Below, in pieces: positions 10,307-64,000 of a stretch of 64,000 nt of DNA; the stretch's first letter is position 1, and every line of letters starts with the position of its first letter. A model generated the notes under the pieces. The model made no database searches, had not been told where the DNA came from, and was given only the letters and a program-made list of their open reading frames with translations. The position numbers and the translations under genes were made by a program. The stretch is from positions 28,534 through 92,533 of the forward strand of contig DUTP01000001.1 of NCBI GenBank assembly GCA_012842045.1, written 5' to 3'. The DNA comes from Candidatus Dojkabacteria bacterium. GTDB taxonomy: Bacteria > Patescibacteriota > Dojkabacteria > SC72.

Positions 10307-10308
10307 TC

Positions 10309-11838: not shown

Positions 11839-11858
11839 GTTTTAATATACCAAAAAAT

Positions 11859-32008: not shown

Positions 32009-32105
32009 ATTTATTTGACATAATCATCAAGAAGTACTAATCTGTATTAAAGAATCTGTCTACTTTAAGAGAAAGATTATGTATATAAAATATTAAACTG
32101 TCTAT

Positions 32106-34511: not shown

Positions 34512-34538
34512 AAATAATTAATATAAATTAATACTGCC

Positions 34539-35018: not shown

Positions 35019-35024
35019 TGTTGA

Positions 35025-45250: not shown

Positions 45251-45266
45251 GTTTAAAGTTTTTATT

Positions 45267-46259: not shown

Positions 46260-46265
46260 ACATTA

Positions 46266-47105: not shown

Positions 47106-47140
47106 ATGTAATTAAATGATAACACAAAAGAAGAAATATC

Positions 47141-47887
47141 TTATCCCCTCCTTTTATGTTTTTTCTTTTTCCTTTTTTTCTTAGGTTGGGATACTTCTTT
47201 TACCTCACTCTCTTCTTCTGTATCTTTATCTTTTACTTCTTTATCCTCTTTCTTTTTAAAAACTTTTTCATAAAGAGAGATCAACTTATCACCTAACTCA
47301 ACAGCTATTCCTTTTCTCTCAGAATATCTTACTTTCTTAGATTCAACAACTTCTGTTGCTTCATCTTTGGATGCTTGGATATGTTCTTGCATAACTTCCC
47401 TAGAAGGTGCTTCCTCTTCTATTTTCTTTACTCTCTTGTGCATTTCATTACCACAGGATGGACAATATTTATATTTCTTATCCATTTCAACTTCACAAAC
47501 AGAGCATTTAATCTTAAGTCTTAGTCTACAATCTGGACAGAATGTAAAACCCGGATAGAGTTGTGCTCCACATCTTGGACAGTCACCTAGTTCTGCAGTT
47601 TCATATTTGAGATATCTTCTTTCTAAATCTGCCCAATATATTTCTTCTATTGTTTGGCTAGGTCTGATTAGTAGATATATTATTAAACCAGGCACAAAAA
47701 GTACTGCTGTCAAAAGGACATATGCTATCCTAACCCCTTTATTTGTAATCCTATCCCCAGAATCCAACCAAACCCAGTACAAAACCACCAACCAGAATGC
47801 AAGTAGTGCAACACCAAACAGAGACCAGACAAAACCAAAATTTATCTTAGTCACACCATCTAGAAAATCTAAAATTGCTTTTTCCAT
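47141..47887 (-). CDS. Membrane protein with double zinc-ribbon and Lys-rich C-terminal tail
   Basis: Two TM helices, then CPRCG...CPDC and CSVCE...CPSCG zinc-ribbon pairs; KKKRKKKKHKRRG tail. Confidence 0.5.
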   Translation of the reverse strand: MEKAILDFLDGVTKINFGFVWSLFGVALLAFWLVVLYWVWLDSGDRITNKGVRIAYVLLTAVLFVPGLIIYLLIRPSQTIEEIYWADLERRYLKYETAELGDCPRCGAQLYPGFTFCPDCRLRLKIKCSVCEVEMDKKYKYCPSCGNEMHKRVKKIEEEAPSREVMQEHIQASKDEATEVVESKKVRYSERKGIAVELGDKLISLYEKVFKKKEDKEVKDKDTEEESEVKEVSQPKKKRKKKKHKRRG

Positions 47888-47906
47888 AATATTTCTACTT
47901 ATTTTA

Positions 47907-47993
47907 TGGTGGTCGAGGAGGGAATCGAACCCTCATGCTATTGCTAGCACGGGATTTTGAGTCCCGCGTGTCTGCCAGTTCCACCACTCGACC
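47907..47993 (-). tRNA. tRNA-Leu (anticodon CAA), type II with long variable arm; CCA encoded
   Basis: Manual fold: acceptor GGTCGAG/CTCGACC, anticodon stem CGGGA/TCCCG with loop CTCAAAA, variable stem GCTA/TAGC, T-arm GAGGG-TTCGATT-CCCTC. Confidence 0.85.
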
Positions 47994-48036
47994 GTTGTTG
48001 CATTATACTAAGAAAACATGTCTTTGGGAAGATTTC

Positions 48037-49356
48037 TTACTTTTTAGCCCTATACAAATTTCTGAAGCTAGCGATTTCAGGAATAAATGCTAACTTAATA
48101 TCTCCAGTTGGACCATTTCTATGTTTTGCTACAATAAGGTCACCTGTTCCCTTGTTTTCCGTTTCAGGATTCCATGTTTCTTCTCTATCGATGAACATAA
48201 CAACATCAGCATCCTGTTCTATAGAGCCAGATTCTCTAAGATCTGAAAGTTGTGGTCTCCTACTCTGTCTCTGTTCAATAGCTCTTGAAAGCTGAGATAG
48301 AGCAACAACTGGAACATCTAATTCTTTTGCGATATTCTTTAAACCTTGTGATATCTCTCCAACTTCCAACGTCCTACTCTCCCTATTATTACCCTGCATA
48401 AGCTGAAGATAGTCAACAAAAATAATGTCTACATTACTCTCAAGAGCTAATCTTCTTGCTTTTGTTCTAAGAGAGTTAATATGTTGTCCTGCTTGATCAT
48501 CAATATATATATTTGCATCACCTAATTCTCCCATTGTACTAGCTAATTTCATAAACTTCTTCTCAGTTAATCTACCTGTCCTAATCTCCCAGAAAGGTAT
48601 ACCAGATTGCATACCTAAAAACCTTTCCATAATCTGTGTCTTAGACATTTCCAGTGAGAAAAATGCAACTGTTTTCTTTTCAACCAATGCTGCATGTCTC
48701 ATCATATCCAAAGCTAATGCTGTTTTACCTACAGAAGGTCTTGCAGCTAAGATAATTAAGTCTGATTTCTGGAAACCACCTAGAAGTTCATCTAAATCTT
48801 TAAAGCCAGTAGATACTCCTAAATATGATTCATCCTTATCTGCTCTCTCAGCTCTCTCATATGCTTCTTTCAAAAGGTCTTTGATATGCACAAAATTAAC
48901 CTTTGTACCTGTTTGTGCGACATCAAAAATTTCCTTCTCTGACTTATCTATTACTTCATCAATTGGTTTGTCCTCATCAAAAGCAATCTCCTTAATATGA
49001 CCTGCAGCAGCTATCAATCCTCTTCTTACCGCACTCTCTTTAATTATCTCTGCATACTCTTCCGCATGTGTAGATGTAGCAATGGTAGTCATTAATTCTG
49101 CCACATAACTTGCACCTCCTGCTGCTGTTAGTTTCTTCTGTTTCTTTAATTTGTCAACAACTGTCACCAAGTCTACAGGTAGAGCATTGTTGAAGAGATC
49201 CATTATGGCTGAATATATGATTACATGTTTGGCATCATAGAAATGCCCTGGTAGAAGCCAAGAGGATACTGTAATAATGGCATCTTTATCCATCAACATA
49301 CATCCTAAGAGTGATTTCTCAACATCTATATTTTGTGGTGGTAGCTTATCTTTCAT
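48037..49356 (-). CDS. dnaB: Replicative DNA helicase DnaB
   Basis: N-terminal EKSLLGCML domain, Walker A ARPSVGKTALALD, RecA-fold motifs. Confidence 0.9.
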   Translation of the reverse strand: MKDKLPPQNIDVEKSLLGCMLMDKDAIITVSSWLLPGHFYDAKHVIIYSAIMDLFNNALPVDLVTVVDKLKKQKKLTAAGGASYVAELMTTIATSTHAEEYAEIIKESAVRRGLIAAAGHIKEIAFDEDKPIDEVIDKSEKEIFDVAQTGTKVNFVHIKDLLKEAYERAERADKDESYLGVSTGFKDLDELLGGFQKSDLIILAARPSVGKTALALDMMRHAALVEKKTVAFFSLEMSKTQIMERFLGMQSGIPFWEIRTGRLTEKKFMKLASTMGELGDANIYIDDQAGQHINSLRTKARRLALESNVDIIFVDYLQLMQGNNRESRTLEVGEISQGLKNIAKELDVPVVALSQLSRAIEQRQSRRPQLSDLRESGSIEQDADVVMFIDREETWNPETENKGTGDLIVAKHRNGPTGDIKLAFIPEIASFRNLYRAKK

Positions 49357-49365
49357 TTTCTCTTT

Positions 49366-50016
49366 TTATTTAAGAAATACTACTTCAACACTCTTTCCCT
49401 CCTCCTCCACTCTTCTTCTTGCAAGATTCACAAACCCTTCATCACTCACATTTGTATATCCAAAATATTTAATAAATTCCTCTCTACTTTTAAGTCCTGT
49501 ATTATCCTTCTTTTCTCCTTTGTATGCACAAGGTATTAACACAGCAGGGTCTACATTTGAAATTATCTTATCAAGCTTGTCATAGTCAAGATATTCTTCA
49601 CCATTTCCAACAGGTACAATCAAAGCATCAACATCACCCAAATTTTTAACAGAATCAGGATCAAAATCTTTTCTAACAATTCCCATATACAAAGTCCTTA
49701 AGTTTTTCTCATCTATTATGTAAAAGTCTTCATCTAAACCTCTTCTTATCATTACACCACCTACCTCATACTCTCCGGGAGTATGAATCTCTATTATCTC
49801 ACCTCTCTTTCCAGGAACAACCTTCCCATCAAGAGAATGTTTCTTTAAGATACTCTCTCCATTCATAGGAGTATCATATTCTGTAAACAGAACAACATCT
49901 GCTTCTGTTTTGGGAAAACTTGCACCCGATTCCTTGAGTAAAAGTGGATCAGTGATGATAGAAAGTTCATTTGAAGTGATTAGGAATGTTGTCCAGCCAA
50001 TTTTTTTAATCTTCAT
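49366..50016 (-). CDS. MBL-fold (UPF0173-like) protein lacking the canonical HxHxDH motif
   Basis: IKKIGWTTFLIT ... IITDP ... ADVVLFTEYD parallels the metallo-beta-lactamase fold N-terminus, but the His ligands are replaced. Confidence 0.35.
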   Translation of the reverse strand: MKIKKIGWTTFLITSNELSIITDPLLLKESGASFPKTEADVVLFTEYDTPMNGESILKKHSLDGKVVPGKRGEIIEIHTPGEYEVGGVMIRRGLDEDFYIIDEKNLRTLYMGIVRKDFDPDSVKNLGDVDALIVPVGNGEEYLDYDKLDKIISNVDPAVLIPCAYKGEKKDNTGLKSREEFIKYFGYTNVSDEGFVNLARRRVEEEGKSVEVVFLK

Positions 50017-50087
50017 ACTAGTATGACTAAAATAAATACAGGTATTACTAAGTATACCAAATTTCCATGGGCAGTTTTAGAATATTT

Positions 50088-50306
50088 TTACTTCATTCCA
50101 AGAGTCTCTTTGATATCTTCTAACATAGATTCCTTCATCTGTTGTTTAACCAACTCTATCTTGAGACTTTCTAAAGAAGATATACATGCTTGAAGTTGAG
50201 TCATTACCCTAGTATCACTATCACCCTTAACTATCATATTCTTAACACCACTCACCTGCCCTTCAACTCTCTTAATTCTATTCTGTATTTTTACTGGGTA
50301 TTTCAT
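50088..50306 (-). CDS. CsoR/RcnR/FrmR-family (DUF156) transcriptional repressor-like protein
   Basis: RIKRVEGQVSGVKNMI ... QLQACISSL matches the family core (RL+RIEGQVRG), though the usual Cys/His ligand set is not obvious. Confidence 0.5.
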   Translation of the reverse strand: MKYPVKIQNRIKRVEGQVSGVKNMIVKGDSDTRVMTQLQACISSLESLKIELVKQQMKESMLEDIKETLGMK

Positions 50307-50396
50307 AATAGTAAAGTTTAATCTAAACCCAATGGAACTGTCAAATAAAAAGAGAGGTCTTTCAACCTCTCTCTCAATTCCAAATCAACCTATCTA

Positions 50397-50738
50397 CTAA
50401 TCATTAGAAGCATAAGGAAGTAAAGCCATATACCTAGCTCTTTTTACAGCTAACTTAACCTGTCTTTGATGCTTATGACATACTCCAGACTTCTCTGTAG
50501 AAATCATTTTACCCTTAACTGAGGTAAACTTCTTTAACTGGTAAACATCTTTGTACGTAACTTCTTTAACTCCAGATTCACAAAGAGGACACTTTAAGTT
50601 TTGAATAATTCTTCTCTTTCTTCTGGGTTTCTTCTTCTGCATAGTATAACCATCTTCCTCTGTTATACTCTTGTCATCATAAACATCATTTAAAGAAACT
50701 GTATTTTCCATTTCTTTATCTTTTACTTCCTCTGACAT
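50397..50738 (-). CDS. rpsR: 30S ribosomal protein S18 (with N-terminal extension)
   Basis: YKDVYQLKKF..S..GKMIS ... QRQVKLAVKRARYMALLPY S18 signature. rpsF-ssb-rpsR arrangement. Confidence 0.85.
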   Translation of the reverse strand: MSEEVKDKEMENTVSLNDVYDDKSITEEDGYTMQKKKPRRKRRIIQNLKCPLCESGVKEVTYKDVYQLKKFTSVKGKMISTEKSGVCHKHQRQVKLAVKRARYMALLPYASND

Positions 50739-50757
50739 TCCTTAAATAGTAACTAAA

Positions 50758-51237
50758 TTAAAATGGTAAATCCTCTTCTAAAGGATCCTGGTCTTCCTGT
50801 TCTTCTACTTCTTCTTCCTTATCCTCTTTTTTAGACTTCTTCTCTACTTTCTCGTCTTCCTTAGGAGCTTCGCTGTCATCTATTCCTGCTCCCTGCTTTC
50901 CCTTACTGTCTAAAAGAATCATATCCTCAACTCTAATCTCTGTTTTATATCTTGTAGAACCATCCTCTGCTTCCCAAGACCTAGTATTCAAAGAACCTTC
51001 GACATATACCTTCATACCTTTTGCAAGTAACTGCTGACAAATCTCAGCCATCTTATTCCATGCAACTAAGTTGTGGAATTCTGCTAACTCTTTTGTCTCT
51101 CCCTCTTCATCCTTCCATGACTTGTTTGTAGCCATGCCGAATGTCACAACTGGGACACCAGAGTTTGTATACCTCATCTCTGGGTCTCTTGTTAGATTCC
51201 CTATTAAGGTAACCTTATTTAACGATCTTACCGCCAT
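50758..51237 (-). CDS. ssb: Single-stranded DNA-binding protein
   Basis: OB-fold N-terminus LNKVTLIGNLTRDPEMRYT and acidic C-terminal tail ending EEDLPF. Confidence 0.9.
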   Translation of the reverse strand: MAVRSLNKVTLIGNLTRDPEMRYTNSGVPVVTFGMATNKSWKDEEGETKELAEFHNLVAWNKMAEICQQLLAKGMKVYVEGSLNTRSWEAEDGSTRYKTEIRVEDMILLDSKGKQGAGIDDSEAPKEDEKVEKKSKKEDKEEEVEEQEDQDPLEEDLPF

Positions 51238-51297
51238 ATGTTTAAAAATAATAATTTAACTTACCTATAACTATACCTTACAATTATTAAATCTAGA

Positions 51298-51642
51298 TTA
51301 AATCTCAATTTCTTTCTTCTTTATACTTTTCCTTACCTTACCAGCATTTTCCAACTTAATTACCATAAATTTCAAAACTTCTTGCTTCAATTGCATAGTC
51401 CTCTTGATTTCTGCAATATATTCTGGACCTATCTTAAAGTCATAAATTATGTAATAACCTTCATTATGACCTTTGATAGGATATGCTAGATATCTTTTTC
51501 CCCAAACATCAGCATCTAAAACCTCTCCTCCAGATTCTTGAACAAATGCTACAAACTCTTTGTGCAACTTCTTTCTCAAATCATCAGGTAACAAAGGCTT
51601 AAGAGCCAACATCATCTCGTAATCGTTCAATTCTTTACTCAC
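51298..51642 (-). CDS. rpsF: 30S ribosomal protein S6
   Basis: YEMMLALKP N-terminus and S6 fold length; heads the rpsF-ssb-rpsR cluster. Confidence 0.85.
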   Translation of the reverse strand: MSKELNDYEMMLALKPLLPDDLRKKLHKEFVAFVQESGGEVLDADVWGKRYLAYPIKGHNEGYYIIYDFKIGPEYIAEIKRTMQLKQEVLKFMVIKLENAGKVRKSIKKKEIEI

Positions 51643-51721
51643 CTTTCATAATATTTATTAAATTAACACTGAAGGATTTTAGCAGAAAATATAAAAGAAG
51701 ACAACAGGATAGCATTACCTA

Positions 51722-52825
51722 TTAATTAGCCAGTACTAGCATATAATCACCATCTTCAATAATATGCTCTTTCCCTACGTTCTTTACAATCCCCTTCTCC
51801 TTGGCTTCTGCCCAACCACCAGCATCAATCATATCATCCACATTCACGATATCTGCCGTTATAAAACCATGTTCTAAATCTGTATGGATAGCACCAGCAG
51901 CTTCCTTAGCAGTAGCACCTCTCTGTATACACCAAGCATTACATTCTTTCTGTGAACCAGTATAGAAAGTCAAAAGATCTAATGTGTCATAAGCAGCTTT
52001 AATAACATCATCCACGAGACTAGGTTTTTCATCTAACATACTCACATACTCCTCAATCTCTTTATCTGACATATTAGCCATCTCTCCTATAAACTTAACA
52101 TCCACTATCAAAACCCTATCACCTGTCTTCTCCTCTAATTCCTTTTTCCACTCCTCCACCTTCTCTCTTGCAATACCTTCCTTGTAATTAAGGATAAATA
52201 TTCTCTTTTTGTTTGTAAGAAGGAAAAGGTCATAAATAATCTCCTGTTCTTCTTCTTTCAACTTCATATCAATAACTGGGATACCCTCATTAAGAGCATT
52301 CATCACTTTCTCTAAAACTGTATACTCCTTAACCCCTTTCTCATCTCCAACCCTCTTTAATTTCTCCACAGTATGTAACCTCTTCTCTACACTCTCAATA
52401 TCTTTTAATATCAATTCTGATTGTACTATCTCAAAGTCTTCTACCGGATTAATCCTTTCATACACATGAACTATATTTGAACTTTCAAAAGCTCTAAGAA
52501 CATACATAATGACATCAACCTCTCTAATATGAGAGAGGAATTGATTCCCTAATCCCTCTCCCTTAGATGCTCCCTGTACAAGACCTGCAATATCTACAAA
52601 TGTCATAGCAGATGGTACAACCTTTTCAGCCTTAAAATGCTCAGCCATTCTCTTAAGTCTCTCATCTGGAATTTCTACTACTCCCACATTCTTATCTATC
52701 GTACAGAAAGGGAAGTTAGCAGCAGGAACACTTAGTTTTGTAATTGCATTAAAAATTGTAGACTTCCCAACATTTGGTAATCCTACAACTCCTAATGATA
52801 GTGAATGAGATCGTTTAATTGACAT
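51722..52825 (-). CDS. ychF: Ribosome-binding ATPase YchF (Obg-family P-loop NTPase with TGS domain)
   Basis: GVVGLPNVGKSTIFNA G1 motif, NFPFCTID G2 motif, coiled-coil insert and C-terminal TGS domain. Confidence 0.85.
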   Translation of the reverse strand: MSIKRSHSLSLGVVGLPNVGKSTIFNAITKLSVPAANFPFCTIDKNVGVVEIPDERLKRMAEHFKAEKVVPSAMTFVDIAGLVQGASKGEGLGNQFLSHIREVDVIMYVLRAFESSNIVHVYERINPVEDFEIVQSELILKDIESVEKRLHTVEKLKRVGDEKGVKEYTVLEKVMNALNEGIPVIDMKLKEEEQEIIYDLFLLTNKKRIFILNYKEGIAREKVEEWKKELEEKTGDRVLIVDVKFIGEMANMSDKEIEEYVSMLDEKPSLVDDVIKAAYDTLDLLTFYTGSQKECNAWCIQRGATAKEAAGAIHTDLEHGFITADIVNVDDMIDAGGWAEAKEKGIVKNVGKEHIIEDGDYMLVLAN

Positions 52826-53034
52826 AGTCTGAATTATACCACATTCAATAAGGTTACCTTGAGCATTTAATTGTGTGTAGAAAGAACTATCTCTGTTTTT
52901 TAAAGAATATTTAACATACTATGAGTAAACTAAAAACCTCTAATACATTAAATATCTATACGAAAAAGGTTATAGTTCTTTCTAACACTCCTTTTTTGCT
53001 CAAGGTAACCTCATTGTGATAATATGGTATTCAT

Positions 53035-54867
53035 ATGAACCCAAAAACCACAACAAAAATAGCCACAGTAATCCTAACCACAATATCACTACTCCTACTA
53101 CCAAAACTTGTATATGCACAGAAACAGGCCGACTTTATCATCAACACCTACACAAAAATTCACTACACAACAGGACAGGATTTTGTAACTGTTGTAAGCA
53201 ATTATGAGAAGAAAGTTGAGAACGGTACTTTCTACTTAACAAAAGAAGGAGAAAAAGTCTTCCATATTCCAGATTTAGAAAAGGATATTGATAATATTGA
53301 GAAAGAGAGAAAATTTAAACAAGACAACTTAACTGTAACAGATATGAATAAAAACCCCATTAAGTACAGTGTTGAACAACTGACTCTTGGACAAGGAATG
53401 TACGTACATGTCCCTCATTACAGAGAAACAACAAAATCAATGCCCTACTCTATTATTATGACATATAAAACACATGACAATATCATTAAAGCTGGAAGAT
53501 TAGTAACATTAATTGGATCCGCTATACCAGAAAACACTCAAAAAGAAAAAGATGATATTAAAAGTGGTACAACTACCTCGTTGAACTACTATTTCTCCTT
53601 TGTTGTAGATGAGAACATACCCACATTAGCAAAAGCATATCCTAAATTTACCAAAAAGAAAGAAGACAACTTAACATATTACAATTTTAGTACAGAAGAG
53701 AGAAAGTCTGCCTCACCGACACTAGAATTTGGGACTGATGTGATATATCGCTTTGAGTTAGAGTATAAAACTCCCAAGACAGATTCTTTCATACCTGAGG
53801 AATATGCAGGACTGTTTAAAGCCCTTTCTACAAATATATACGAGATGTCTTTACCAAGAGAATATTCAGAAACCAATCAAGAAGTATGGATCGATACTAT
53901 ATCTCCTACACCAAAAAATATCTTTCGGAATAGAGAAGGAAATGTAATAGCTTCATTTGAGGTACCATCAAATAAAGAAGATATAATCAAAGTATCAGGA
54001 TACATTCGACAGAGTAAGCAACCATACACAGTAAACCATCTAGAGAAACTAAATATTGATTTTAAAGAATATTTAGAAAAAATTGGTCAAGACAAAGGGA
54101 ATATTAAATATTTAACTTCTACTAAGTATTGGGAAATAGGAGACCCTTTTATACAAGACGCTGCAGCATCACTACTCAAAGGAAAGAAAACTCTGTTTGA
54201 GGTGGTAGATGCTAATTATGAATATGTCAACGAGAAATTAACATATGATGAAGAGAAGGCAAATTCAGAAAATACTAGAATTGGTGCGGTCAATGCACTT
54301 GCTGGTGGTGCTTCTGTCTGTATGGAGTATGCAGATTCTATGATTGCTTTGCTAAGAGCACAGGGAATACCTGCTAGAGCAGCTTTAGGATATGCCAATA
54401 TTATGGATACAGAGAGAGTACAAGTGAGACATCAGTGGGTACAGATTTGGATCCCTGACCATGGTTGGTTTAGCATTGATCCAACATTTGAGAGTAAGAA
54501 TAGAAAGATGGGACAAATGATTGACAGAGTTCTTTGGGAGACATTTTACGATGATTCCCTCTCTAATATAAGTATTTTTTCCATAAATGATGAGGATAGC
54601 TTCTCTGAAGACAATTACAAGGTAGAAATCTTTGCTGTTGATAATATGTCTGGTGGAAATATGAAAAAATATAATGAGATAATCCCAGAAACAAATATTG
54701 ATGATGAAGCAAGATATAATATGGTCACTAAATCTAATTCTTTCTTAAAAACCACCGTATTAGGAAGAGCTTTACTAGTCACAGCCCCTGTAATAGTACT
54801 AATTATCTTTATGACTATTCTAATTGCTCTAATTAAGAAAGTTATTAGAAGAGAAAAAAAGAAATAG
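53035..54867 (+). CDS. Secreted, membrane-anchored transglutaminase-like cysteine-protease-domain protein
   Basis: Signal peptide. Cys-His-Asp triad context GASVCMEYADSMIALLRAQGIPAR ... RHQWVQIWIP ... SIDPT. C-terminal TM and basic tail. Confidence 0.7.
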   Translation: MNPKTTTKIATVILTTISLLLLPKLVYAQKQADFIINTYTKIHYTTGQDFVTVVSNYEKKVENGTFYLTKEGEKVFHIPDLEKDIDNIEKERKFKQDNLTVTDMNKNPIKYSVEQLTLGQGMYVHVPHYRETTKSMPYSIIMTYKTHDNIIKAGRLVTLIGSAIPENTQKEKDDIKSGTTTSLNYYFSFVVDENIPTLAKAYPKFTKKKEDNLTYYNFSTEERKSASPTLEFGTDVIYRFELEYKTPKTDSFIPEEYAGLFKALSTNIYEMSLPREYSETNQEVWIDTISPTPKNIFRNREGNVIASFEVPSNKEDIIKVSGYIRQSKQPYTVNHLEKLNIDFKEYLEKIGQDKGNIKYLTSTKYWEIGDPFIQDAAASLLKGKKTLFEVVDANYEYVNEKLTYDEEKANSENTRIGAVNALAGGASVCMEYADSMIALLRAQGIPARAALGYANIMDTERVQVRHQWVQIWIPDHGWFSIDPTFESKNRKMGQMIDRVLWETFYDDSLSNISIFSINDEDSFSEDNYKVEIFAVDNMSGGNMKKYNEIIPETNIDDEARYNMVTKSNSFLKTTVLGRALLVTAPVIVLIIFMTILIALIKKVIRREKKK

Positions 54868-54872
54868 TTTTC

Positions 54873-56384
54873 CTACTTAAATCGATAAAGCTTGTCAACA
54901 TTGAACATTCTCTTACCATTCTCAAGTCTATTCTCTGTTTGTGCATATATAGTTATAAGAGGTTCTCCTTTCTTAACACTCTCTCCTGGCATCTTATGAA
55001 CTCGAATACCAGCAGCTTTTACTTTTGGATTACCTAAAACCCTAGCAATACTCACCAGAGTCACATTATCTATAGTTGCAACAACTCCATCCCTATCTGA
55101 AAGCATGTCAGCACTAAGCCCAGCATCCTTTATCTCTGTAGAATGAATCTCTCTTGTAGCACCTTGTGCAAATGCTATCTCCCAAAACTTCTTTAATGCC
55201 TGCTTACTGTCAAGAATGCTTCGAGCAAACTTTTTACCCTGCCCCTTACCTGTTTTACCTGTCTGTTCAAACAACATACCTGCCATATCAAGAATAACCT
55301 TCTCTAATTCTATACACCTGTTCTCTGCCCTCTCTAATATTCTCAACGCTTCCCTTATCTCTGCATTCGGACCTATACTCCTCCCATCAGGACCCTTAAC
55401 CAATCTCCTTATCGTTTCACACTTAATACCAAATTTTTGGAAAAGTTTCCTGAATTCTCTATCTAACATAGATACATCATCAGGATTTTCAACTTTAGAA
55501 CCTTTGCCATATGGGAGATCTATTAATATATGAGTTATACCCATAGAGATTTTCTTGGCAACAATACTCACTAAAACCTTTTGGAATTCTTGAATTCTAA
55601 GAGACCTTTCTACATTGATAATAACATCATCCGCTGGAGAAAGTTGCAATGATCCTCCCCAGAACATACATCCTCCTGTTTTCTTCACGGTTTCATAAAC
55701 CTTATCCTTTGTTAAAGCCACAGGCATCACAACTTCTAAAATATCTGTTGTTCCTGCTGGTGAGGTAATAGCTCTAGTTGAAGTATTTGGAACAATCAAA
55801 CCTCCCGAGACTAGAATAGGGATCAATGTTGGGGTAATAGCTTTTCCTGCGACACCACCAATAGAGTGCTTATCAGCAACAATCTCTTCTCCTTCCCTGA
55901 TATTCTTGAAATCCATAGAGTCTCCTGATTCGGCCATACCCTTTGTCATCCAGTAAATTTCTTCTTCATTAAACCCTGGATTGAAGAAAGTCGAAACAAA
56001 GAAAGCAACTTCCGTTTCCCTAAGCTTCCTACTCCCTATATCTTTCATAATATTCTCAAGATCTTCCTTAGCAAGAGGTTGCCCTAGAAGCTTTTTACTT
56101 ATAGCTTCCAAAGACTGACTGACTTGAGGAATATCAATAAAGATAGAGGCTTCATCAGGAATATGATACTCATCCCAAAGTTCTTCAAACAGCCCTATCT
56201 CTCCTTCTTGAACCTTCGTTAATGTCTCCAGTACCGTTGCATACAACTCCAGTTCCCCATAACCAACCAAAACATTCTCTCCCTCCTTAACCCCTATTCT
56301 CTCAGCATCTTTTCTGTGCAAAATTACATTAAAATCATTATCTTGTCCTATATCCAAATTTTTCCCTTTTAAGTAGAGTGCCAT
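54873..56384 (-). CDS. AMP phosphorylase (archaeal-type DeoA homologue, thymidine phosphorylase family II)
   Basis: 503 aa with N-terminal extension. HSIGGVAGKAIT, SSRAITSPAGTTD and WGGSLQLSPADD motifs align with characterised AMP phosphorylases rather than 440-aa thymidine phosphorylases. Confidence 0.8.
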   Translation of the reverse strand: MALYLKGKNLDIGQDNDFNVILHRKDAERIGVKEGENVLVGYGELELYATVLETLTKVQEGEIGLFEELWDEYHIPDEASIFIDIPQVSQSLEAISKKLLGQPLAKEDLENIMKDIGSRKLRETEVAFFVSTFFNPGFNEEEIYWMTKGMAESGDSMDFKNIREGEEIVADKHSIGGVAGKAITPTLIPILVSGGLIVPNTSTRAITSPAGTTDILEVVMPVALTKDKVYETVKKTGGCMFWGGSLQLSPADDVIINVERSLRIQEFQKVLVSIVAKKISMGITHILIDLPYGKGSKVENPDDVSMLDREFRKLFQKFGIKCETIRRLVKGPDGRSIGPNAEIREALRILERAENRCIELEKVILDMAGMLFEQTGKTGKGQGKKFARSILDSKQALKKFWEIAFAQGATREIHSTEIKDAGLSADMLSDRDGVVATIDNVTLVSIARVLGNPKVKAAGIRVHKMPGESVKKGEPLITIYAQTENRLENGKRMFNVDKLYRFK

Positions 56385-56400
56385 ATTAAAAACACTAATA

Positions 56401-57360
56401 TTATTTAATTACCATATTATCAAAAATCCAAGGGTATTTCTCCTTAACTAAATCTCTAATATTATTAGGGGAAACCATACCAAATTCTGTCAAGTATCCT
56501 GTTATCAATACAGAGTCAACAATCTCAAATGCTGGATTATACATATGCAAACCTTTAGGAGCATCTTCCCAAAGTTCTTTATCCTCCCTAACTTCAATCT
56601 TCACAGTATCTAGAAACGAGGTTGGGTCAATCTTCAACAAAGGGGTTACAACATAGAGAGACTTACCTGCATAGTATGATGCCATTGCTATTCCCCAACT
56701 CCCTATCTTGTTAATCGTATGACCCTCGGCAGTAATCTGGTCACATCCAATGAAAACAGCATCTATTTTTACACTACCTCTACCAATTATGAAAGATTCC
56801 GCTGCACTATCTGCAATAAAAGTTGTCTTAACACCTGCTTCTAACATACTTTTAGCTGTCTTTCGACCTTGATATCTTGGTCTAGTTTCTGTGCATACGA
56901 CTTCAAAATCAGGATCTCCTTTCCCTATAATTTTCATAACCGCAACAGCAGTTGAAGAATGACAGTGCGTAAACATCTTATCTATATATGTAAGATTTTT
57001 TGCATTTTGAGCAATCAAATCTTTTTTAGTAGATGCTATCAGCTCTAAGTACTCATCACACAACGCTATCAACTCTTGTTTCATGACCGAAAGTTCTGGT
57101 AAAACAGGAAATCTCTCTTTAAAAAAATGAAGAATATATGTTACACCATTTCTTGCAAGTGGTTCATTATCTCTAGCAAGGGCTAACTCCCATCCAACCC
57201 TACTCAATTCAGAGAAAAGCTCATCTTTGTCTGTTTCCTCAGTTTTTTCAAGATAGATTTTCATACCTTCAAAAGTTGAAATAGCTACATTAGTAGCACC
57301 TTGAATGTTCAACTTTTGTATATCATCAAAAATCTTTTTTACTTCAGGATACTCCTTCAT
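56401..57360 (-). CDS. Ribose-1,5-bisphosphate isomerase (eIF-2B alpha/beta/delta-like, e2b2 family)
   Basis: eIF-2B-like fold motifs (GATNVAIS, CHSSTA, TETRPRYQGR, IGCDQITAEG). Adjacent to the AMP phosphorylase. Confidence 0.75.
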   Translation of the reverse strand: MKEYPEVKKIFDDIQKLNIQGATNVAISTFEGMKIYLEKTEETDKDELFSELSRVGWELALARDNEPLARNGVTYILHFFKERFPVLPELSVMKQELIALCDEYLELIASTKKDLIAQNAKNLTYIDKMFTHCHSSTAVAVMKIIGKGDPDFEVVCTETRPRYQGRKTAKSMLEAGVKTTFIADSAAESFIIGRGSVKIDAVFIGCDQITAEGHTINKIGSWGIAMASYYAGKSLYVVTPLLKIDPTSFLDTVKIEVREDKELWEDAPKGLHMYNPAFEIVDSVLITGYLTEFGMVSPNNIRDLVKEKYPWIFDNMVIK

Positions 57361-57373
57361 AGGTATTGCAAAA

Positions 57374-58777
57374 TTAATCTAATTTAACACTCTCCATATA
57401 CTCAGGTATATATATTTCATTATTAAACTCCTGCCTAAGATTCTCTGCAAAAGCATCTATTATCTCACTATCTCCATGCACCAAAAAAATCTTTCTAGGT
57501 GTATGCCCAAAACTCCTTAACCAATACCTGAGATCTCTTTGATCTCCATGTCCAGAAAAACCATTCAGTGTATATAATTTTGCATTGTTTTGATATTCCT
57601 GTCCATGTATTTTTACTGTCTTCTCTCCATCCACTATTCTTCTACCTAAAGTACCAGCAACTTGATAGCCAACAATCACAAGATGTGTCTTTGGATCTTC
57701 TATATTATTTTTTAGATGATGAAGTATCCTACCTCCTGTACACATTCCACTTCCTGCAATTATGACAACACCTTGTTTAGATACTAACCTCCTAGATTCC
57801 TCTGTACTTTCAATTTTTCTAAAACCAGGAAAATCAAAAGGGTCATCCCCTTTCTCTATTAACCTCTTCGCATCTGTATCATAGAAATCTGGATACTGTC
57901 TAAATATTTCTGTAGCTTTAACAGCCATAGGACTGTCTAAATATACTGGCATATTTTCTAATAGTTTCTTTTCAACAAACAGATTTAACTCATAGAGAAG
58001 CTCCTGAGTCCTCTCAATTGCAAAAGATGGGATCAGAACATTACCTTGTACTTTTTGAGCGCTATGCAGAGCTTCTAATAGCTCTAGAACTGTCTCATTT
58101 CTATCCTTGTGATATCTATTTCCATATGTAGACTCACAGATGACATAGTCTGCCTCTCTTATCAGATCTGGGTCTCTTACAATTCTAGCACCAGGCTGCC
58201 CTAAGTCTCCTGAGAAAACCAATTTTCTCAATCTATCTGCTTCATTTTTAGCCCAAACTTCAAAGATAGAAGACCCTAAGATATGACCAGCATCTCTCAT
58301 TCTTACTTCTAGAGTATCTTGAGAAAGATTTACAGAAGTATTGTATGGATATACTTCAAAATACTTCATTGTTTCTTCGACATCTTGTTCTGTAAAAAGG
58401 GGCTTCTGAACACCTTCATCAGAGGAGCTCTTTTTTGCTTGTGCCATCCATCTCTTACTCTCCTCCTCTTGAAGTTTAGCGGAATCTAAAAGTATTATCT
58501 TTGTTAAATCCCTGGTAGGTTGTGTTGATATTATTCTCCCTTTAAAACCCTGCTTGACTAACAAAGGTAATCTCCCACAGTGATCAAAATGTGCATGAGT
58601 AAGAAGGACAAAATCTATATCAGCAGGATTAAAAGGAAAAGGATCATAGTTTTTTTCCTCTATCTCTTCTGCACCTTGAAAAGCACCACAATCTACTAAG
58701 AACTTGAATCTACCTGTATCTACCAAAAAACAGGAACCTGTTACTGTTTTTGTTGCTCCAAGGAACTGTATTGTCAT
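57374..58777 (-). CDS. Metallo-beta-lactamase/beta-CASP family RNA-processing nuclease (RNase J/CPSF-like)
   Basis: HxHxDH motif LLTHAHFDHCG, beta-CASP motifs and C-terminal RMMBL-like region. Confidence 0.75.
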   Translation of the reverse strand: MTIQFLGATKTVTGSCFLVDTGRFKFLVDCGAFQGAEEIEEKNYDPFPFNPADIDFVLLTHAHFDHCGRLPLLVKQGFKGRIISTQPTRDLTKIILLDSAKLQEEESKRWMAQAKKSSSDEGVQKPLFTEQDVEETMKYFEVYPYNTSVNLSQDTLEVRMRDAGHILGSSIFEVWAKNEADRLRKLVFSGDLGQPGARIVRDPDLIREADYVICESTYGNRYHKDRNETVLELLEALHSAQKVQGNVLIPSFAIERTQELLYELNLFVEKKLLENMPVYLDSPMAVKATEIFRQYPDFYDTDAKRLIEKGDDPFDFPGFRKIESTEESRRLVSKQGVVIIAGSGMCTGGRILHHLKNNIEDPKTHLVIVGYQVAGTLGRRIVDGEKTVKIHGQEYQNNAKLYTLNGFSGHGDQRDLRYWLRSFGHTPRKIFLVHGDSEIIDAFAENLRQEFNNEIYIPEYMESVKLD

Positions 58778-58845
58778 ACGGGCAGATTAGAATATCAAAT
58801 ATTACTTACTGTAATATAATACTACAGTCAAAAGGGTAAGTAAAA

Positions 58846-59274
58846 TTATTTCCCTGTAGAACCAAAACCACCTTCTCCTCTCTCTGTTTCTTCCAGCTCA
58901 TCAGCAACTTCAAGATTATCTTTAAGTGAGAGACATGGAACAACAACTATTTGAGCAAATCTTTCAGTATCGGTTAAGACAATACCACTCTTTGATGTAT
59001 TTATCACCTGAGCAATCACTTCACCTCTGTAATCACTATCTATCACTCCAACAGAGTTTTTTAACATGAGACCTTTCTTACCAAAAGAAGACCTAACAAA
59101 GAGTAGACCAACATATCCTTTAGGTATTTCTAAGTACACTCCAGTATGTATCTCTGCACTCTCATTCGGTTTTACTACAATATCTTTCTCTGTCTTTACT
59201 TTCAAATCTGCTCCAGCTGAAAACTCTGTTTTTACTTCTGGCAGATATTTTTGATTATCTACTTTAATTTTCAT
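58846..59274 (-). CDS. dut: dUTP diphosphatase
   Basis: dUTPase motifs SAGADL, GVIDSDYRGEV and C-terminal Gly-rich P-loop-like tail. Confidence 0.85.
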   Translation of the reverse strand: MKIKVDNQKYLPEVKTEFSAGADLKVKTEKDIVVKPNESAEIHTGVYLEIPKGYVGLLFVRSSFGKKGLMLKNSVGVIDSDYRGEVIAQVINTSKSGIVLTDTERFAQIVVVPCLSLKDNLEVADELEETERGEGGFGSTGK

Positions 59275-60700
59275 TCTTCTCTTTATTTAACTTAATTGCT
59301 AGTTCTTCCAACTTTTCTCTTGTATTCATCAATGGATCTTCCACTACAATATCCAAAAGTTCTCTCAAAATTTCTCCCATCTTAGGACCTTTCTTAACAC
59401 CTATTTTTTCTAGTTGTTCACCGTTGATTTTTAAATCTGATATTTTTAATGCCATATCCTGCTTTCTTACTTCTGCTATTCTTTGTTGTAAGAGAGTAAC
59501 TTCATCTGGTTTGAATGAGCTATATGGGTTTGATTGTGCATCAGCCATTCTTAATTTGAAAAGATCTTCAATGTTCTCCTCTCCTACTCTTTGTATGAAT
59601 CGTCTTACCGCAGAATCAGACCATTGGTGAAGCTCCACATTCTCAATTTCTTCTTCTGTCATCTCTTCCTTTTTATGTGGATAGTGGAACATATGATTTT
59701 CAATTAGTTTTCTTACTCTCAGTATTTCATTCTTAGGGAACTTCATTCTTTTCATAATTTCTTCTGCCATATCAGCACCCATTCTGTCATGACCATAGAA
59801 GTGTCCATTTCCCATATCTGTTCTAGGTTTTGCAATGTCATGAAGTAATGCAGCTAACTTAACACTATCATGAGCTACATCACATGTTCTCAATGCATGT
59901 TCATAGACATCATGAGCATGAAAGAGTTTCTGTTCTACACCTACTCCCTCTAACAATTCAGGTAGAAAGATAGAGAGAAGACCTGTCCCCCTCATTAACT
60001 CAATGCCTACAGATGGTTTAGGAGAATTAAGTAGCATTTTCATAAATTCATCCCTTATTCTCTCCATGGATATTGATTGTGCAACAGCATTAGCTTCTTT
60101 GATTGCATTAAATGTATCCTCCTCTATATCAAAACCTAATTGAGAAGCCATTCTACAAGCCTTAAAAGACCTCAAACCATCCTCTTTAAACCTCTCTATT
60201 GGAGTACCTACTGCCCTAACCAACTTCCTTTTAATATCCCCTACACCATCAAAAGGATCATAGATTGTAACTTGCTTCTGTTCTTTACCATCATCAAGAT
60301 TAATCTTAGAAAGATCTATTGCCATGGCATTAAAAGTAAAATCTCTCCTTCCCAAATCCTTATCTATCTCGTCTACAAACTCAACTGAACTAGGCCATCT
60401 TCCATCAATATACCCAGCTTCACTTCTAAATGTTGTAACCTCTACCTCATATGTCTCACCATGTTCATCTTGCACAAGAACTATCACTGTACCAAACTTT
60501 GCACCAGTAGAAACAGACCTTGGAAACATATTAAGCATCTCATCAGGTAGAGCATTTGTTGCCAAATCATAATCATGAGGAGTTTTTTTCAAAACAATAT
60601 CTCTAACTGCACCACCAACAAGATATGCTTCAAAACCTTCCTTTAACAGAATTCTTGCTACCTTTTGTACATAATTTGGTAAAAATATTTCTACTTCCAT
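59264..60700 (-). CDS. cca: CCA-adding tRNA nucleotidyltransferase (class II polymerase-beta family with HD domain)
   Basis: GGAVRD nucleotidyltransferase motif with the DxD pair; HD-domain motif HDIAKP. ATG at 60700 preceded by AAGAGGG; the track ORF starts further upstream. Confidence 0.8.
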   Translation of the reverse strand: MEVEIFLPNYVQKVARILLKEGFEAYLVGGAVRDIVLKKTPHDYDLATNALPDEMLNMFPRSVSTGAKFGTVIVLVQDEHGETYEVEVTTFRSEAGYIDGRWPSSVEFVDEIDKDLGRRDFTFNAMAIDLSKINLDDGKEQKQVTIYDPFDGVGDIKRKLVRAVGTPIERFKEDGLRSFKACRMASQLGFDIEEDTFNAIKEANAVAQSISMERIRDEFMKMLLNSPKPSVGIELMRGTGLLSIFLPELLEGVGVEQKLFHAHDVYEHALRTCDVAHDSVKLAALLHDIAKPRTDMGNGHFYGHDRMGADMAEEIMKRMKFPKNEILRVRKLIENHMFHYPHKKEEMTEEEIENVELHQWSDSAVRRFIQRVGEENIEDLFKLRMADAQSNPYSSFKPDEVTLLQQRIAEVRKQDMALKISDLKINGEQLEKIGVKKGPKMGEILRELLDIVVEDPLMNTREKLEELAIKLNKEKNEN

Positions 60701-61946
60701 ATACCCTCTTTTTAAATCTTTTTCTAAGAACAGAATACCAGAGAAATATATCAACAACAAGGAGTAAGAGTGTTGGGTAAATTAAATATGTATTATCAAT
60801 CCCTGTTTTTGGTAACTCTTTCAAAGATGAACTTATACCTAAAATCTTTTTATCCTCATCCAAAATATTAACCTGTTCACTCTCTTCTTCTACTTCTGGA
60901 GACAACTCCTCCACATTACTGTTATCCCCCTCTTCTACTAACATAACTGGTGAAGAAGTCATTTTAAAAGGAATCCTCTCAATACAGAAAGCTTCTTTAG
61001 GTTCAGCTAACATCCAACCAGAAACCAGCCCACCATCCATTCTTGCAGAAAACACAGAAACAGAATCAACATTAAAATTGTAACTAAAGTTATTACCAAA
61101 AACAGAACATCTCTTTGAAGAATCAGGAACCTCTACAGTAAAAGAACCAAATGTACCATCCTCTTCAATATTTTCTTTAGGAAGGTAGTATATGAAATTA
61201 GCATCTTCCTGTGGTTCTAAAGAAGCGACACCAAAAAAATCCTTATGTTTAAGATACACACGATTTAATTTATCAGAGCCAACATTTCTAAGTCTAACAG
61301 AAACTTGATAACTATCACCTTCTTCTTGTGCAAAAGCATCTATTAGATAAATTGGATTTTTGATATGTAATTTATCTAGATGCTTTTTTCCATGATGAGT
61401 ATACTCAACATTACCAACACCTGAATACCTGCGTAGAACACCATTTCTAATTACTGTTTGTCCCATATTTAACAAATCAAGAGAATTTAAATCTCCTTCT
61501 CCATTCTCAAATGATGCAAAATCAGTAAAAAAAGATTCTTCTACTGGTTCATTTCTAGTATATGCAACATCAACTTCGGGAATGAAAACTGTATGACCTG
61601 TTTGGTTGGAGTAAAAGTAGGTAACATCAACTACAGACCCAGGAGGCACAGCGACATATGTTCCATCTGTCCCTTTTCTAAAAGGATAACCTGGTTCTTT
61701 GAGCATCCATAAATCCCAATGCACCTGACCTGTCATACTCCCAACTACATTAGCTAAATCATACTCTATTCCACCATGACTACTTGAAGATTCGGGAAGT
61801 GATAAGGAATCGATACTGTAAGCTATTGTTGAGTAAAACAAGTTCTGCTCATTATCACCACTATTAGTAAAACCATCCGCCAACACCGATGTTGTAAAAA
61901 AGCAAAATACTAGAAAAGGAATTATAAATAAAAGAAGTTTTTTCAT
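60630..61946 (-). CDS. Cell-surface protein with signal peptide and C-terminal LPXTG (LPKTG) sortase sorting signal
   Basis: N-terminal signal peptide; C-terminal LPKTG, then a hydrophobic segment and RKRFKKR basic tail. Confidence 0.65.
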   Translation of the reverse strand: MKKLLLFIIPFLVFCFFTTSVLADGFTNSGDNEQNLFYSTIAYSIDSLSLPESSSSHGGIEYDLANVVGSMTGQVHWDLWMLKEPGYPFRKGTDGTYVAVPPGSVVDVTYFYSNQTGHTVFIPEVDVAYTRNEPVEESFFTDFASFENGEGDLNSLDLLNMGQTVIRNGVLRRYSGVGNVEYTHHGKKHLDKLHIKNPIYLIDAFAQEEGDSYQVSVRLRNVGSDKLNRVYLKHKDFFGVASLEPQEDANFIYYLPKENIEEDGTFGSFTVEVPDSSKRCSVFGNNFSYNFNVDSVSVFSARMDGGLVSGWMLAEPKEAFCIERIPFKMTSSPVMLVEEGDNSNVEELSPEVEEESEQVNILDEDKKILGISSSLKELPKTGIDNTYLIYPTLLLLVVDIFLWYSVLRKRFKKRVYGSRNIFTKLCTKGSKNSVKGRF

Positions 61947-62015
61947 ACATACCCTTACTAAATTTAAATAGTAAAGATATGGTACACCAAGGAGATTAAA
62001 TCGAGATTAACTCAA

Positions 62016-63659
62016 TTATGAATTTTCTACAGAGATATCTTCTTTTCTAACTTTCTCTGTAATGTAGAAGTTCCTCTTAAACTTACCCTTGCCCAACATC
62101 ATCTCTGTAATTGCTTGTACATGAGGTATCAAATTGAATGTTAACATATTCACAGAGAGTAGAAATGTCTCTAAAATATCTAAAATATTTCTCCATATAC
62201 TCCAATCTTTAGGGATAGGCGTTATCTTTCTCCTTGCCCTAACAGTCCACATATTTACAATCATGGCAAATGTCAAAAAGTAACTGATAATTCTAGGAAG
62301 ATTGTATGGGAAAATTGTATGTTTGTAATCAGGATTGAGAACTGATATCAAAAAGCCACCAAAGGTAAGAACAACTACAACTGTAAAAAGCCACATCTGT
62401 TCTGTCACCGCTTTAAACATCTGTGTTCTTTTAAACAATGATATGCCACTTCCTCTTCTTAGAATAACGGAAAGCATAATTGGGAATGGTATCTTACCCC
62501 AACCCCATCTGTACTGCTGTTTGTAGAATGAGACATGTGTACTCACAAAATCCTTATTCTCAACTGCATCACTATATGTTGGAGTATATACTTCGAAACT
62601 TTTAAAAGTACCTTTACTCCTTACCATAGTATTCCAGTAAAATGCAGTATCATCATTTGGTATCTCTGGATCCCAATACTCCATCTCTTTGAGAGTATTT
62701 AAATTGACAATATATGAGGAGAAAGTATCTTTCGTATAGAATTCTTCCCCAGTAAACAATGATTTCACCGTTTTCTCCACCACCCAAGTGTATGCTGTCG
62801 CCATGGTTGTCATATTGGAGGAATTTCTAATCAATGATGGTACATTCCAAATATTATTATTAAACGTATGTATAGCTGATGTGAAAAATGCATACTCCGG
62901 ATTCTCAACTGTCATATACCTATACGTTATAGCGGAGAGATACTTCTCATGAGGTCTTAAATCTGAATCACATGTAATCAGTAGGTAGTCCCTTAAATTC
63001 TTACCCTCCTTTTCTAGTTTCTCTACAAAATGTCTAGTTGCATAGTTAATGTTAGCTCCTTTAACTCCAGCTATTTCACCAGGAATACCTGCAGGGTGAA
63101 TATAATATTGCATACTTCCAAATTTATCACCATATTTCTTCTTTAACTTTTTGAAATTTTCAATTTGAAGATCCTGTTTTTTCTCTTCAATAGCCATTAC
63201 AACATCAATTTTTTTAGCACCAATATCACTCTTTGACCAAGCTTCAAAAGATGGGTCTAGAATATTGTACTCTTCACCATATACAGGGCAGAGATAAATA
63301 TATCTTAAGTCTTCAACCCTGTCATCATTCAACTCCTCTACTTTTTTGACCCAATCTGTTTCTATAGCTTTTTCCATCCTTTTTACAGCTATATTAACCC
63401 CAACTGTAAATCTAATTGCTCTAAAGAACCAATATGCTACTATAAAGGCCATATAGATAACATATGCTGTTGTCAGTCTAAATACTGCAAAAATTATAGG
63501 AAGAAGTAGAAGTGTCCAGAGAAGAAAGCCTGGAATAATTTCAAATATTCTTCTTTGCCAATATGGTAAATCTTTAGGGAAACCTTCAAACCTGTCCTTT
63601 GGCCTATATGTTTTATGATTTAAATCCTTATCCTTTTTAGTTTCAGAATTCTTTTTCAT
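62016..63659 (-). CDS. Processive family-2 glycosyltransferase (cellulose/chitin/hyaluronan synthase-like) integral membrane protein
   Basis: Multiple TM helices flanking a cytoplasmic GT-A domain with a DSD (D,D) motif and the QQYRWGWG (QxxRW) processivity motif. The track ORF N-terminus is mistranslated tRNA; ATG at 63659. Confidence 0.6.
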   Translation of the reverse strand: MKKNSETKKDKDLNHKTYRPKDRFEGFPKDLPYWQRRIFEIIPGFLLWTLLLLPIIFAVFRLTTAYVIYMAFIVAYWFFRAIRFTVGVNIAVKRMEKAIETDWVKKVEELNDDRVEDLRYIYLCPVYGEEYNILDPSFEAWSKSDIGAKKIDVVMAIEEKKQDLQIENFKKLKKKYGDKFGSMQYYIHPAGIPGEIAGVKGANINYATRHFVEKLEKEGKNLRDYLLITCDSDLRPHEKYLSAITYRYMTVENPEYAFFTSAIHTFNNNIWNVPSLIRNSSNMTTMATAYTWVVEKTVKSLFTGEEFYTKDTFSSYIVNLNTLKEMEYWDPEIPNDDTAFYWNTMVRSKGTFKSFEVYTPTYSDAVENKDFVSTHVSFYKQQYRWGWGKIPFPIMLSVILRRGSGISLFKRTQMFKAVTEQMWLFTVVVVLTFGGFLISVLNPDYKHTIFPYNLPRIISYFLTFAMIVNMWTVRARRKITPIPKDWSIWRNILDILETFLLSVNMLTFNLIPHVQAITEMMLGKGKFKRNFYITEKVRKEDISVENS

Positions 63660-63677
63660 AATTACATCATTATACAA

Positions 63678-63764
63678 CGGAGAGAGTGGGATTCGAACCC
63701 ACGGTACAGAAGACTGTACAACGGTTTTCAAGACCGTCTCTTTCGACCACTCAGACATCTCTCC
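63678..63764 (-). tRNA. tRNA-Ser (anticodon UGA), type II with long variable arm; CCA not encoded
   Basis: Manual fold: acceptor GGAGAGA/TCTCTCC+G, anticodon stem ACGGT/ACCGT with loop CTTGAAA, variable stem GTACAG/CTGTAC, T-arm GTGGG-TTCGAAT-CCCAC. Confidence 0.85.
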
Positions 63765-63809
63765 AATGCCGATAATTATACCATATTAACAAGAACAATT
63801 ATGAAAAAG

Positions 63810-64000
63810 TTAGGATGTAAACATCTTTCTTACAATCTCTTCTAAGGACATATCAGGAGTCTTTGCTATTAACTCTTGAAGCTCTCCATCGTAAAGAATT
63901 TTACCGTTATCGATAATAATAACTCTCTTACATACTCCCCTAATATCCTCCATATTATGGCTTGTAAGAATGATTGTTGAGTCATATTCCTTGTGATAAT
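63810..64000 (-). CDS. ABC transporter ATP-binding protein, C-terminal fragment; 5' end outside the window
   Basis: Minus-strand frame reads ...ILTSHNMEDIRGVCKRVIIIDNGKILYDGELQEL... (H-loop and C-terminal region of an ABC ATPase), ending at a TAA at 63810-63812. Confidence 0.6.
   Translation of the reverse strand, partial: YHKEYDSTIILTSHNMEDIRGVCKRVIIIDNGKILYDGELQELIAKTPDMSLEEIVRKMFTS

Follow-up and report, generated by a model that had tools for sequence, protein, structure and literature searches.

Do two neighboring genes of a Candidatus Dojkabacteria bacterium encode the first two steps of the archaeal route from AMP to 3-phosphoglycerate, and if so, where is the RuBisCO (the carboxylase/oxygenase of ribulose-1,5-bisphosphate; large subunit, RbcL) with which that route ends? 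The genes occupy positions 54,873 to 57,360 of a 64,000-nucleotide stretch of contig DUTP01000001.1 (positions 28,534 to 92,533; GC content ∼35%), hereafter termed the window, and are predicted to encode a deoA-type AMP (nucleoside 5'-monophosphate, NMP) phosphorylase (AMPpase) of 503 aa and an e2b2-type ribose-1,5-bisphosphate (R15P) isomerase of 319 aa. We consider it quite probable that the pair are the orthologs, in this candidate phyla radiation (CPR) lineage, of the two enzymes with which the archaeal AMP (or pentose-bisphosphate) pathway begins, with the RuBisCO most likely encoded elsewhere on a chromosome of ∼0.75 Mb. The initial annotation of this DNA had read the genes as two of the three steps of the AMP-to-3-phosphoglycerate shunt, and had described this shunt as known from Archaea and reported in CPR bacteria; both family assignments hold, and the pair has already been described for Dojkabacteria, in which it is an ordinary arrangement (Wrighton 2016, PMC5113843; Jaffe 2018 preprint, bioRxiv 10.1101/386292).

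The two open reading frames (ORFs) are adjacent and lie on one strand, as first annotated: the isomerase gene (e2b2; 56401..57360, minus strand) is followed by the phosphorylase gene (deoA; 54873..56384, minus strand), both begin with ATG, and the ORF list and the sequence itself give a gap of 16 nt between them. The AMPpase sequence is encoded exactly on two further records, contig DAITKO010000001.1 (GCA_036836175.1; 752,854 bp) and a Logan contig of SRR2420280. Over positions 44,873-64,000 and 1-11,073 of the window, its identity with the former contig is 100%, and in the middle part the two differ by 12 mismatches and one 138-bp difference in repeat number.

The best NCBIfam model for the 503-aa protein is AMP_phos (TIGR03327; 445.4 bits), and the protein also passes the cut-offs of two archaeal-type subfamily models (NF003338, 443.6 vs. 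434 bits; TIGR02645, 435.8 vs. 434.6 bits). Its best solved relative is the AMPpase of Thermococcus kodakarensis (PDB 4GA5), with 290.7 bits over residues 17-489. The T. kodakarensis enzyme, which acts on all NMPs and was long misannotated as a thymidine phosphorylase (TP), has an extra N-terminal domain of ∼84 residues that is absent from TP and from pyrimidine nucleoside phosphorylase (PyNP), and for which a role has been described (PMC8376864). An N-terminal extension of ∼90 aa is present in the Dojkabacteria protein as well: the match to full-length 4GA5 places residues 17-89 on its N-terminal part, and E. coli DeoA has no counterpart in an alignment of the 503-aa protein, the T. kodakarensis AMPpase, E. 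coli DeoA, and 35 Dojkabacteria orthologs. At the residue level, we compared motifs found in the T. kodakarensis AMPpase but missing from E. coli TP, and those common to the 503-aa protein and the archaeal enzyme are HSIGGVxGx (one residue longer than its TP counterpart, HSTGGV-GD), TSxRAITSxAGTxD, and WGGxLxLxPADD. As a predicted enzyme, it falls within the archaeal-type subfamily of AMP/NMP phosphorylases.

The 319-aa protein, a member of the Pfam family IF-2B, matches the model ribulose_e2b2 best (TIGR00511; 164.3 bits), and its best solved relatives are the R15P isomerases of T. kodakarensis (PDB 3A11; 129.5 bits) and P. horikoshii (PDB 5YFJ; 126 bits). Ligand residues were mapped from the P. 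horikoshii structures (PMC5789824) and compared with 32 full-length Dojkabacteria orthologs. The catalytic pair, which is Cys133/Asp202 in T. kodakarensis and Cys135/Asp204 in P. horikoshii, is present as Cys133 (in THCHS) and Asp207 (in GCDQIT), and is invariant in the 32 orthologs. Also kept throughout this set (P. horikoshii numbering) are Asn214 and Lys215, which bind the sugar, Ser137 and Lys240, which bind the 5-phosphate, and three of the four 1-phosphate ligands (Arg22, Arg65, Gln166, and Lys215), the exception being Arg22, which is replaced by Gln. Ten of the 12 substrate-site positions are conserved in total, and the two replacements, Arg22 to Gln (Q20) and Gly25 to Thr (T23), are themselves invariant in the orthologs, so that the 12-site active-site signature reads QGATRCSQDNKK here and RGAGRCSQDNKK in P. 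horikoshii. None of the seven AMP-activator residues (P. horikoshii Arg124, Arg190, Lys194, Asn209, Arg229, Trp231, and Asp290) is kept in the 319-aa protein. Because one 1-phosphate ligand is changed and the activator residues are replaced, the kinetics and regulation of this putative enzyme may differ from those of the characterized isomerases. The assignment as a predicted e2b2-type R15P isomerase is supported by the best model, the closest structures, and the catalytic residues, in line with the initial annotation.

These replacements extend well beyond this genome. When 1.84 billion representatives were searched exhaustively with the e2b2 protein, 5,096 relatives emerged (201 at E ≤ 1e-30), and nearly all of the top 150 representatives, as well as the RbcL-fused domains described below, carry Gln at the position of Arg22. 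Only 0-2 of the seven AMP-activator residues are retained in 152 of 167 clade members. This clade-wide loss suggests that AMP activation of the kind found in Thermococcales would not operate in the CPR-type e2b2 clade, and that AMP regulation may therefore not apply in CPR. For the CPR isomerase, the altered Arg22 position and the absent AMP site are, together with the phylum-wide ribonuclease neighbor discussed below, the only mildly new observations on an otherwise known pair.

Within the same clade, the isomerase occurs fused to RuBisCO. Two e2b2::RbcL fusion proteins are found among the top 150 relatives and 17 more were retrieved with a form III-c RbcL profile, for a total of 19. The signature QGATRCSQDNKK recurs unchanged in 16 of the latter 17 fused domains, and 77 of the 150 top-ranked representatives of the family also carry it. 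These fusions provide direct Rosetta-stone evidence, at the level of the clade, that the type of e2b2 protein encoded in the window would supply RuBisCO. Gene order in form III-c CPR genomes is consistent with this link and agrees with Jaffe et al. (2018 preprint, bioRxiv 10.1101/386292): e2b2, RbcL, and deoA are consecutive in one genome, the fusion is followed by deoA in another, and in a third CPR genome with e2b2-RbcL there is no deoA after RbcL. The form III-c clusters (bioRxiv 10.1101/386292) resemble the present locus in their e2b2 clade, in the identical 12-site signature, and in the order of e2b2 before deoA, and differ in the place of RbcL, which separates the two genes or forms a fusion with e2b2, whereas in the window the two genes abut and deoA is of full length. 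In one of the form III-c genomes (locus L085, 10238-11407), the deoA after the fusion encodes only 389 aa and is devoid of the N-terminal domain, consistent with the deletion of ∼80 aa noted in Gottesmanbacteria deoA by Jaffe et al. (2018 preprint, bioRxiv 10.1101/386292).

As the initial annotation had noted, RbcL is absent from the window: five RuBisCO motifs searched by regular expression in six frames gave no match in the 64 kb, tblastn gave none at E ≤ 1e-3, and the RuBisCO families PF00016 and PF02788 are absent from the Pfam gene lists for positions 41,625-124,897 of DAITKO010000001.1, a span of 83 kb (11% of the contig) that covers the whole window and ∼10 kb on each side. As tblastn queries we used T. 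kodakarensis RbcL (identical to PDB 1GEH), R. rubrum CbbM, one RbcL of form III-c, and one fragment of form II/III, and these searches did recover a positive control, the N-terminus of a form II/III-like RbcL with which a contig assigned to viruses ends (L046, 5929-6381; IMG/VR UViG_3300006250_000206). The best 120 homologs of this control sequence are all fragments of 85-263 aa, some of them named Peribacteria, and their shortness is probably due to gene calling under translation table 11, which would break genes at recoded UGA codons. A scan of IMG/VR with form III-c patterns gave no match.

The local absence of RbcL can be judged against related loci, for which we compared 43 metagenome loci and 32 genome loci. 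The genome loci were drawn from the GTDB species collection and are mostly labeled Dojkabacteria or WS6, others bearing generic labels (e.g., "uncultured Candidatus Saccharibacteria bacterium" and "Patescibacteria group bacterium"); the nearest genome in this collection is isolate Gw_SlDig_bin_189 (JAGPFQ01), with 97% AMPpase identity. A block comprising a β-CASP ribonuclease (RNase), e2b2, deoA, a transglutaminase-like gene on the opposite strand, and ychF recurs in ∼70 Dojkabacteria loci. It is present in every contig of sufficient length except for a few of the most distant loci, and persists down to 46-51% AMPpase identity. Within 10 kb of deoA, tblastn detected no RbcL in any of the ∼75 related loci. 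The same holds for WS6 GW2011_GWF2_39_15 (L080, identical to L035), which carries the orthologous block with 48% AMPpase and 50% e2b2 identity. It is listed as a closed genome with a form II/III RuBisCO elsewhere in it, and a "two gene AMP pathway" feeding that RuBisCO has been proposed (Wrighton 2016, PMC5113843). Since a RuBisCO-bearing WS6 genome has the same RbcL-free neighborhood, local absence of RbcL says nothing about the whole genome. Adjacent deoA and e2b2 with RuBisCO elsewhere is the published state of the phylum Dojkabacteria, because this WS6 genome combines the same block with a reported RuBisCO. In the literature, RuBisCO is frequent in Dojkabacteria and is possibly a core enzyme, and AMP phosphorylase and RuBisCO are conserved in that clade. 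From these reports, we estimate that an RbcL gene is fairly likely to be present elsewhere on this chromosome.

In the proposed route, NMPs from RNA turnover or scavenging would be converted, with phosphate, to free base and R15P by the 503-aa phosphorylase, and R15P would be isomerized to ribulose-1,5-bisphosphate (RuBP) by the 319-aa e2b2 enzyme through Cys133/Asp207. The most likely next step would be the carboxylation of RuBP to two molecules of 3-phosphoglycerate (3-PGA), the enzyme being a RuBisCO of form II/III, III-like, or III-c whose gene lies at another place in the genome, as published for other Dojkabacteria. The outcome would be carbon and ATP drawn from scavenged RNA or nucleotides, in a cell with almost no sugar metabolism. 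For WS6, the use of RuBisCO-derived 3-PGA for substrate-level ATP formation has been suggested (Wrighton 2016, PMC5113843).

The AMP pathway of T. kodakarensis (4GA5, 3A11, and the form III RuBisCO 1GEH) agrees with this route in both enzyme families, in the order of reactions, in the N-terminal domain of the AMPpase, and in the catalytic Cys/Asp, the sugar and 5-phosphate ligands, and three of four 1-phosphate ligands of the isomerase. The two systems differ in that the genes here adjoin each other in a CPR bacterium that is no thermophile, the AMPpases share only 36.7% identity, the scores are below equivalog level, Arg22 is Gln, all seven AMP-site residues are replaced, and RuBisCO was not found in the 83 kb.

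Several observations weigh against the route proposed here. Neither protein reaches the equivalog cut-off of its best model, which is 535 bits for TIGR03327 (445.4 obtained) and, at 314.1 bits, well above the score of 164.3 for TIGR00511. The initial annotation had placed the phosphorylase close to the characterized Thermococcus enzyme in motif content; the family holds (best model, best structure, and N-terminal domain), and the closeness amounts to 36.7% identity and a score short of that cut-off. In the isomerase, the change of Arg22 to Gln and the loss of all seven AMP-activator residues point in the same direction. We know of no enzyme assay of any CPR AMPpase or R15P isomerase, and the activities of both proteins, like a RuBisCO gene outside the 83 kb, are what we infer. 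A recombinant WS6 RuBisCO was reported to have no detectable activity (Wrighton 2016, PMC5113843). Finally, RbcL was not located for this genome and is absent from the 83 kb around the locus. It is not among the best 120 matches listed for either protein search (form II/III fragment and form III-c profile), a result of little weight given that the lists stop at that rank, Peribacteria-like fragments were all that the II/III query drew, Gottesmanbacteria-type sequences took up the III-c list, and neither query was of form III-like.

These last points bear most directly on a second explanation, in which the pair operates without RuBisCO, and RuBP (or ribose bisphosphate) is used otherwise, e.g., by a haloarchaea-like RuBP phosphatase and ribulose-1-phosphate (Ru1P) aldolase yielding dihydroxyacetone phosphate and glycolaldehyde, or in which an ancestral pair is still "waiting" for RuBisCO. 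It would account for the lack of RbcL both in the 83 kb and in the ∼75 related loci, and for the abutting e2b2 and deoA where form III-c CPR genomes have RbcL in between. Jaffe et al. (2018 preprint, bioRxiv 10.1101/386292) argued that deoA and e2b2 were passed on vertically in CPR, with RuBisCO, the "missing puzzle piece," arriving later by lateral transfer in carriers of the two genes, and tabulated genomes that have from one to three components of the pathway. Haloarchaea have been shown to process RuBP independently of RuBisCO, in the non-carboxylating pentose bisphosphate pathway (Sato 2022, PMC9700705), which shares with the present locus an R15P isomerase with no RuBisCO nearby. That pathway differs in its entry, a nucleoside phosphorylase and a ribose-1-phosphate (R1P) kinase rather than an AMPpase, and in its need for a RuBP phosphatase and an Ru1P aldolase; the 83 kb offered no convincing candidate for either. 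An NT5C-like protein of the HAD type is encoded 8-13 kb from the pair, as is a PfkB-like kinase, and they were considered as RuBP phosphatase and R1P kinase, respectively, but the matches are weak and partial; a FucA-type aldolase is absent from the 83 kb. Against a route lacking RuBisCO stand also the frequency or conservation of RuBisCO in Dojkabacteria, the RbcL-free neighborhood of the RuBisCO-bearing WS6-1 genome, and the span of the negative result, as 89% of the contig lies outside the 83 kb. Taken together, we regard this explanation as unlikely. Its most far-reaching form, in which the genome is truly devoid of RuBisCO and the pair, perhaps fed 5'-NMPs by the β-CASP RNase, channels the ribose of RNA into a RuBisCO-independent route as a bacterial counterpart of the haloarchaeal pathway, appears quite unlikely.

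A third explanation, classical salvage, would take the 503-aa protein for a nucleoside phosphorylase of the pyrimidine or thymidine type, and the 319-aa protein for MtnA, the methylthioribose-1-phosphate isomerase of methionine salvage. It draws on the label "thymidine phosphorylase" given to close homologs of the 503-aa protein by the NCBI pipeline (the JGI label is "AMP phosphorylase"), and on the fact that both proteins, being under the AMP_phos and ribulose_e2b2 equivalog cut-offs, also match TP and MtnA models. Because the T. kodakarensis AMPpase was itself long misannotated in this way, the NCBI label is not evidence against the AMPpase assignment (PMC8376864). The canonical models score far below both their own cut-offs (TIGR02643, 117.1 vs. 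570.7 bits; TIGR02644, 186.6 vs. 409 bits) and the 445 bits of AMP_phos, and PyNP and TP chains in the PDB reach at most 105 bits, compared with 291 for the T. kodakarensis AMPpase, so that by these scores the protein does not group with canonical thymidine phosphorylases. Identity to E. coli DeoA is likewise lower, at 22.8% vs. 36.7%. For the 319-aa protein, MtnA models give 124-152 bits (TIGR00512, 124.1 bits against a cut-off of 279) vs. 164 for the R15P isomerase model, and MtnA chains in the PDB at most 77.5 vs. 129.5 bits. With the AMPpase N-terminal domain present, the 5-phosphate ligands Ser and Lys kept, and the same e2b2 type fused to RuBisCO, classical salvage is very improbable.

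To our knowledge, bacteria have no eIF2/eIF2B system. The idea that the 319-aa protein is a non-enzymatic, eIF2B-like regulatory paralog, suggested by its Pfam family and by weak matches to aIF-2B (41-79 bits) and to eIF2B subunits (at most 59 bits vs. 129.5 for R15P isomerase, scores by which it does not group with eIF2B-type paralogs), is effectively refuted by the residue pattern, as the catalytic Cys and the 1-phosphate ligands missing from eIF2B alpha (PMC5789824) are present here, and its probability is close to nil.

The pair, read as the first two enzymes of the AMP pathway, adds one genome to the known Dojkabacteria/CPR route from the ribose of scavenged nucleotides via RuBP to 3-PGA. 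Its main use is in annotation, because NCBI calls such proteins "thymidine phosphorylase." Were this single-contig (possibly closed, 0.75-Mb) genome truly to have no RuBisCO, it would offer a bacterial test case for a RuBisCO-independent fate of RuBP.

The next gene upstream, on the same strand, encodes a β-CASP metallo-β-lactamase ribonuclease (57374..58777, minus strand; 467 aa; Pfam Lactamase_B, Beta-Casp, and RMMBL), and ends 13 nt before the start of e2b2. The gaps between the β-CASP, e2b2, and deoA genes contain no terminator-like site, and the deoA/e2b2 locus is presumably co-transcribed. Among solved structures, the β-CASP protein is closest to RNase TTHA0252 of T. thermophilus (294 bits), and its resemblance to aCPSF and type VII Cas14 stays below their cut-offs. 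Its gene is co-oriented just upstream of e2b2 in nearly all Dojkabacteria loci, and is absent beside the e2b2-RbcL(-deoA) clusters of three other CPR genomes. As a hypothesis only, the RNase could supply 5'-NMPs to the phosphorylase, or the arrangement could be plain synteny. We did not adopt a functional coupling to the pair, since the gene is missing from those clusters and its conservation may therefore be plain phylum-level synteny.

Downstream of the pair, a transglutaminase-core protein (53035-54867, plus strand; 610 aa), with a signal-like segment at its N-terminus and a hydrophobic tail at its C-terminus, is encoded convergently with deoA, the stop codons being 5 nt apart. Its position is kept across Dojkabacteria and its sequence diverges rapidly (31-85% identity). 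The surroundings are rich in genes of nucleotide metabolism: a dUTPase and a CCA-adding enzyme are encoded upstream on the same strand as the pair (58846-60760, minus strand), and beyond the end of the window (L047, 2089-7858; record positions 43.7-49.5 kb) follow the NT5C-like HAD protein, a radical-SAM protein, and dNK/dTMP-kinase-like and MazG-like proteins. A 520-aa protein in the same stretch has only a partial PfkB kinase domain.

Elsewhere in the window, a phage-integrase-family gene (35025-36326) adjoins two ORFs without Pfam matches, of 1202 and 801 aa, in a region (28400-36326) with a GC content of 0.39, compared with ∼0.35; this region may be a mobile or surface-protein island. The ORF at 32106-34511 (plus strand) encodes the large protein of 801 aa, and contains an 18-bp tandem repeat (32914-33137; 12.4 copies) that specifies hexapeptide repeats. 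The corresponding gene of DAITKO010000001.1 encodes 847 aa, a difference in copy number that accounts for the 138 bp by which the two contigs differ, and the 12 mismatches between them are confined to the 25-46 kb stretch. Toward the start of the window, a type IV pilus cluster typical of CPR (2456-13679, minus strand) encodes a PilM-like protein, a prepilin peptidase, N-methyl pilins, T2SSF, and two T2SSE ATPases.

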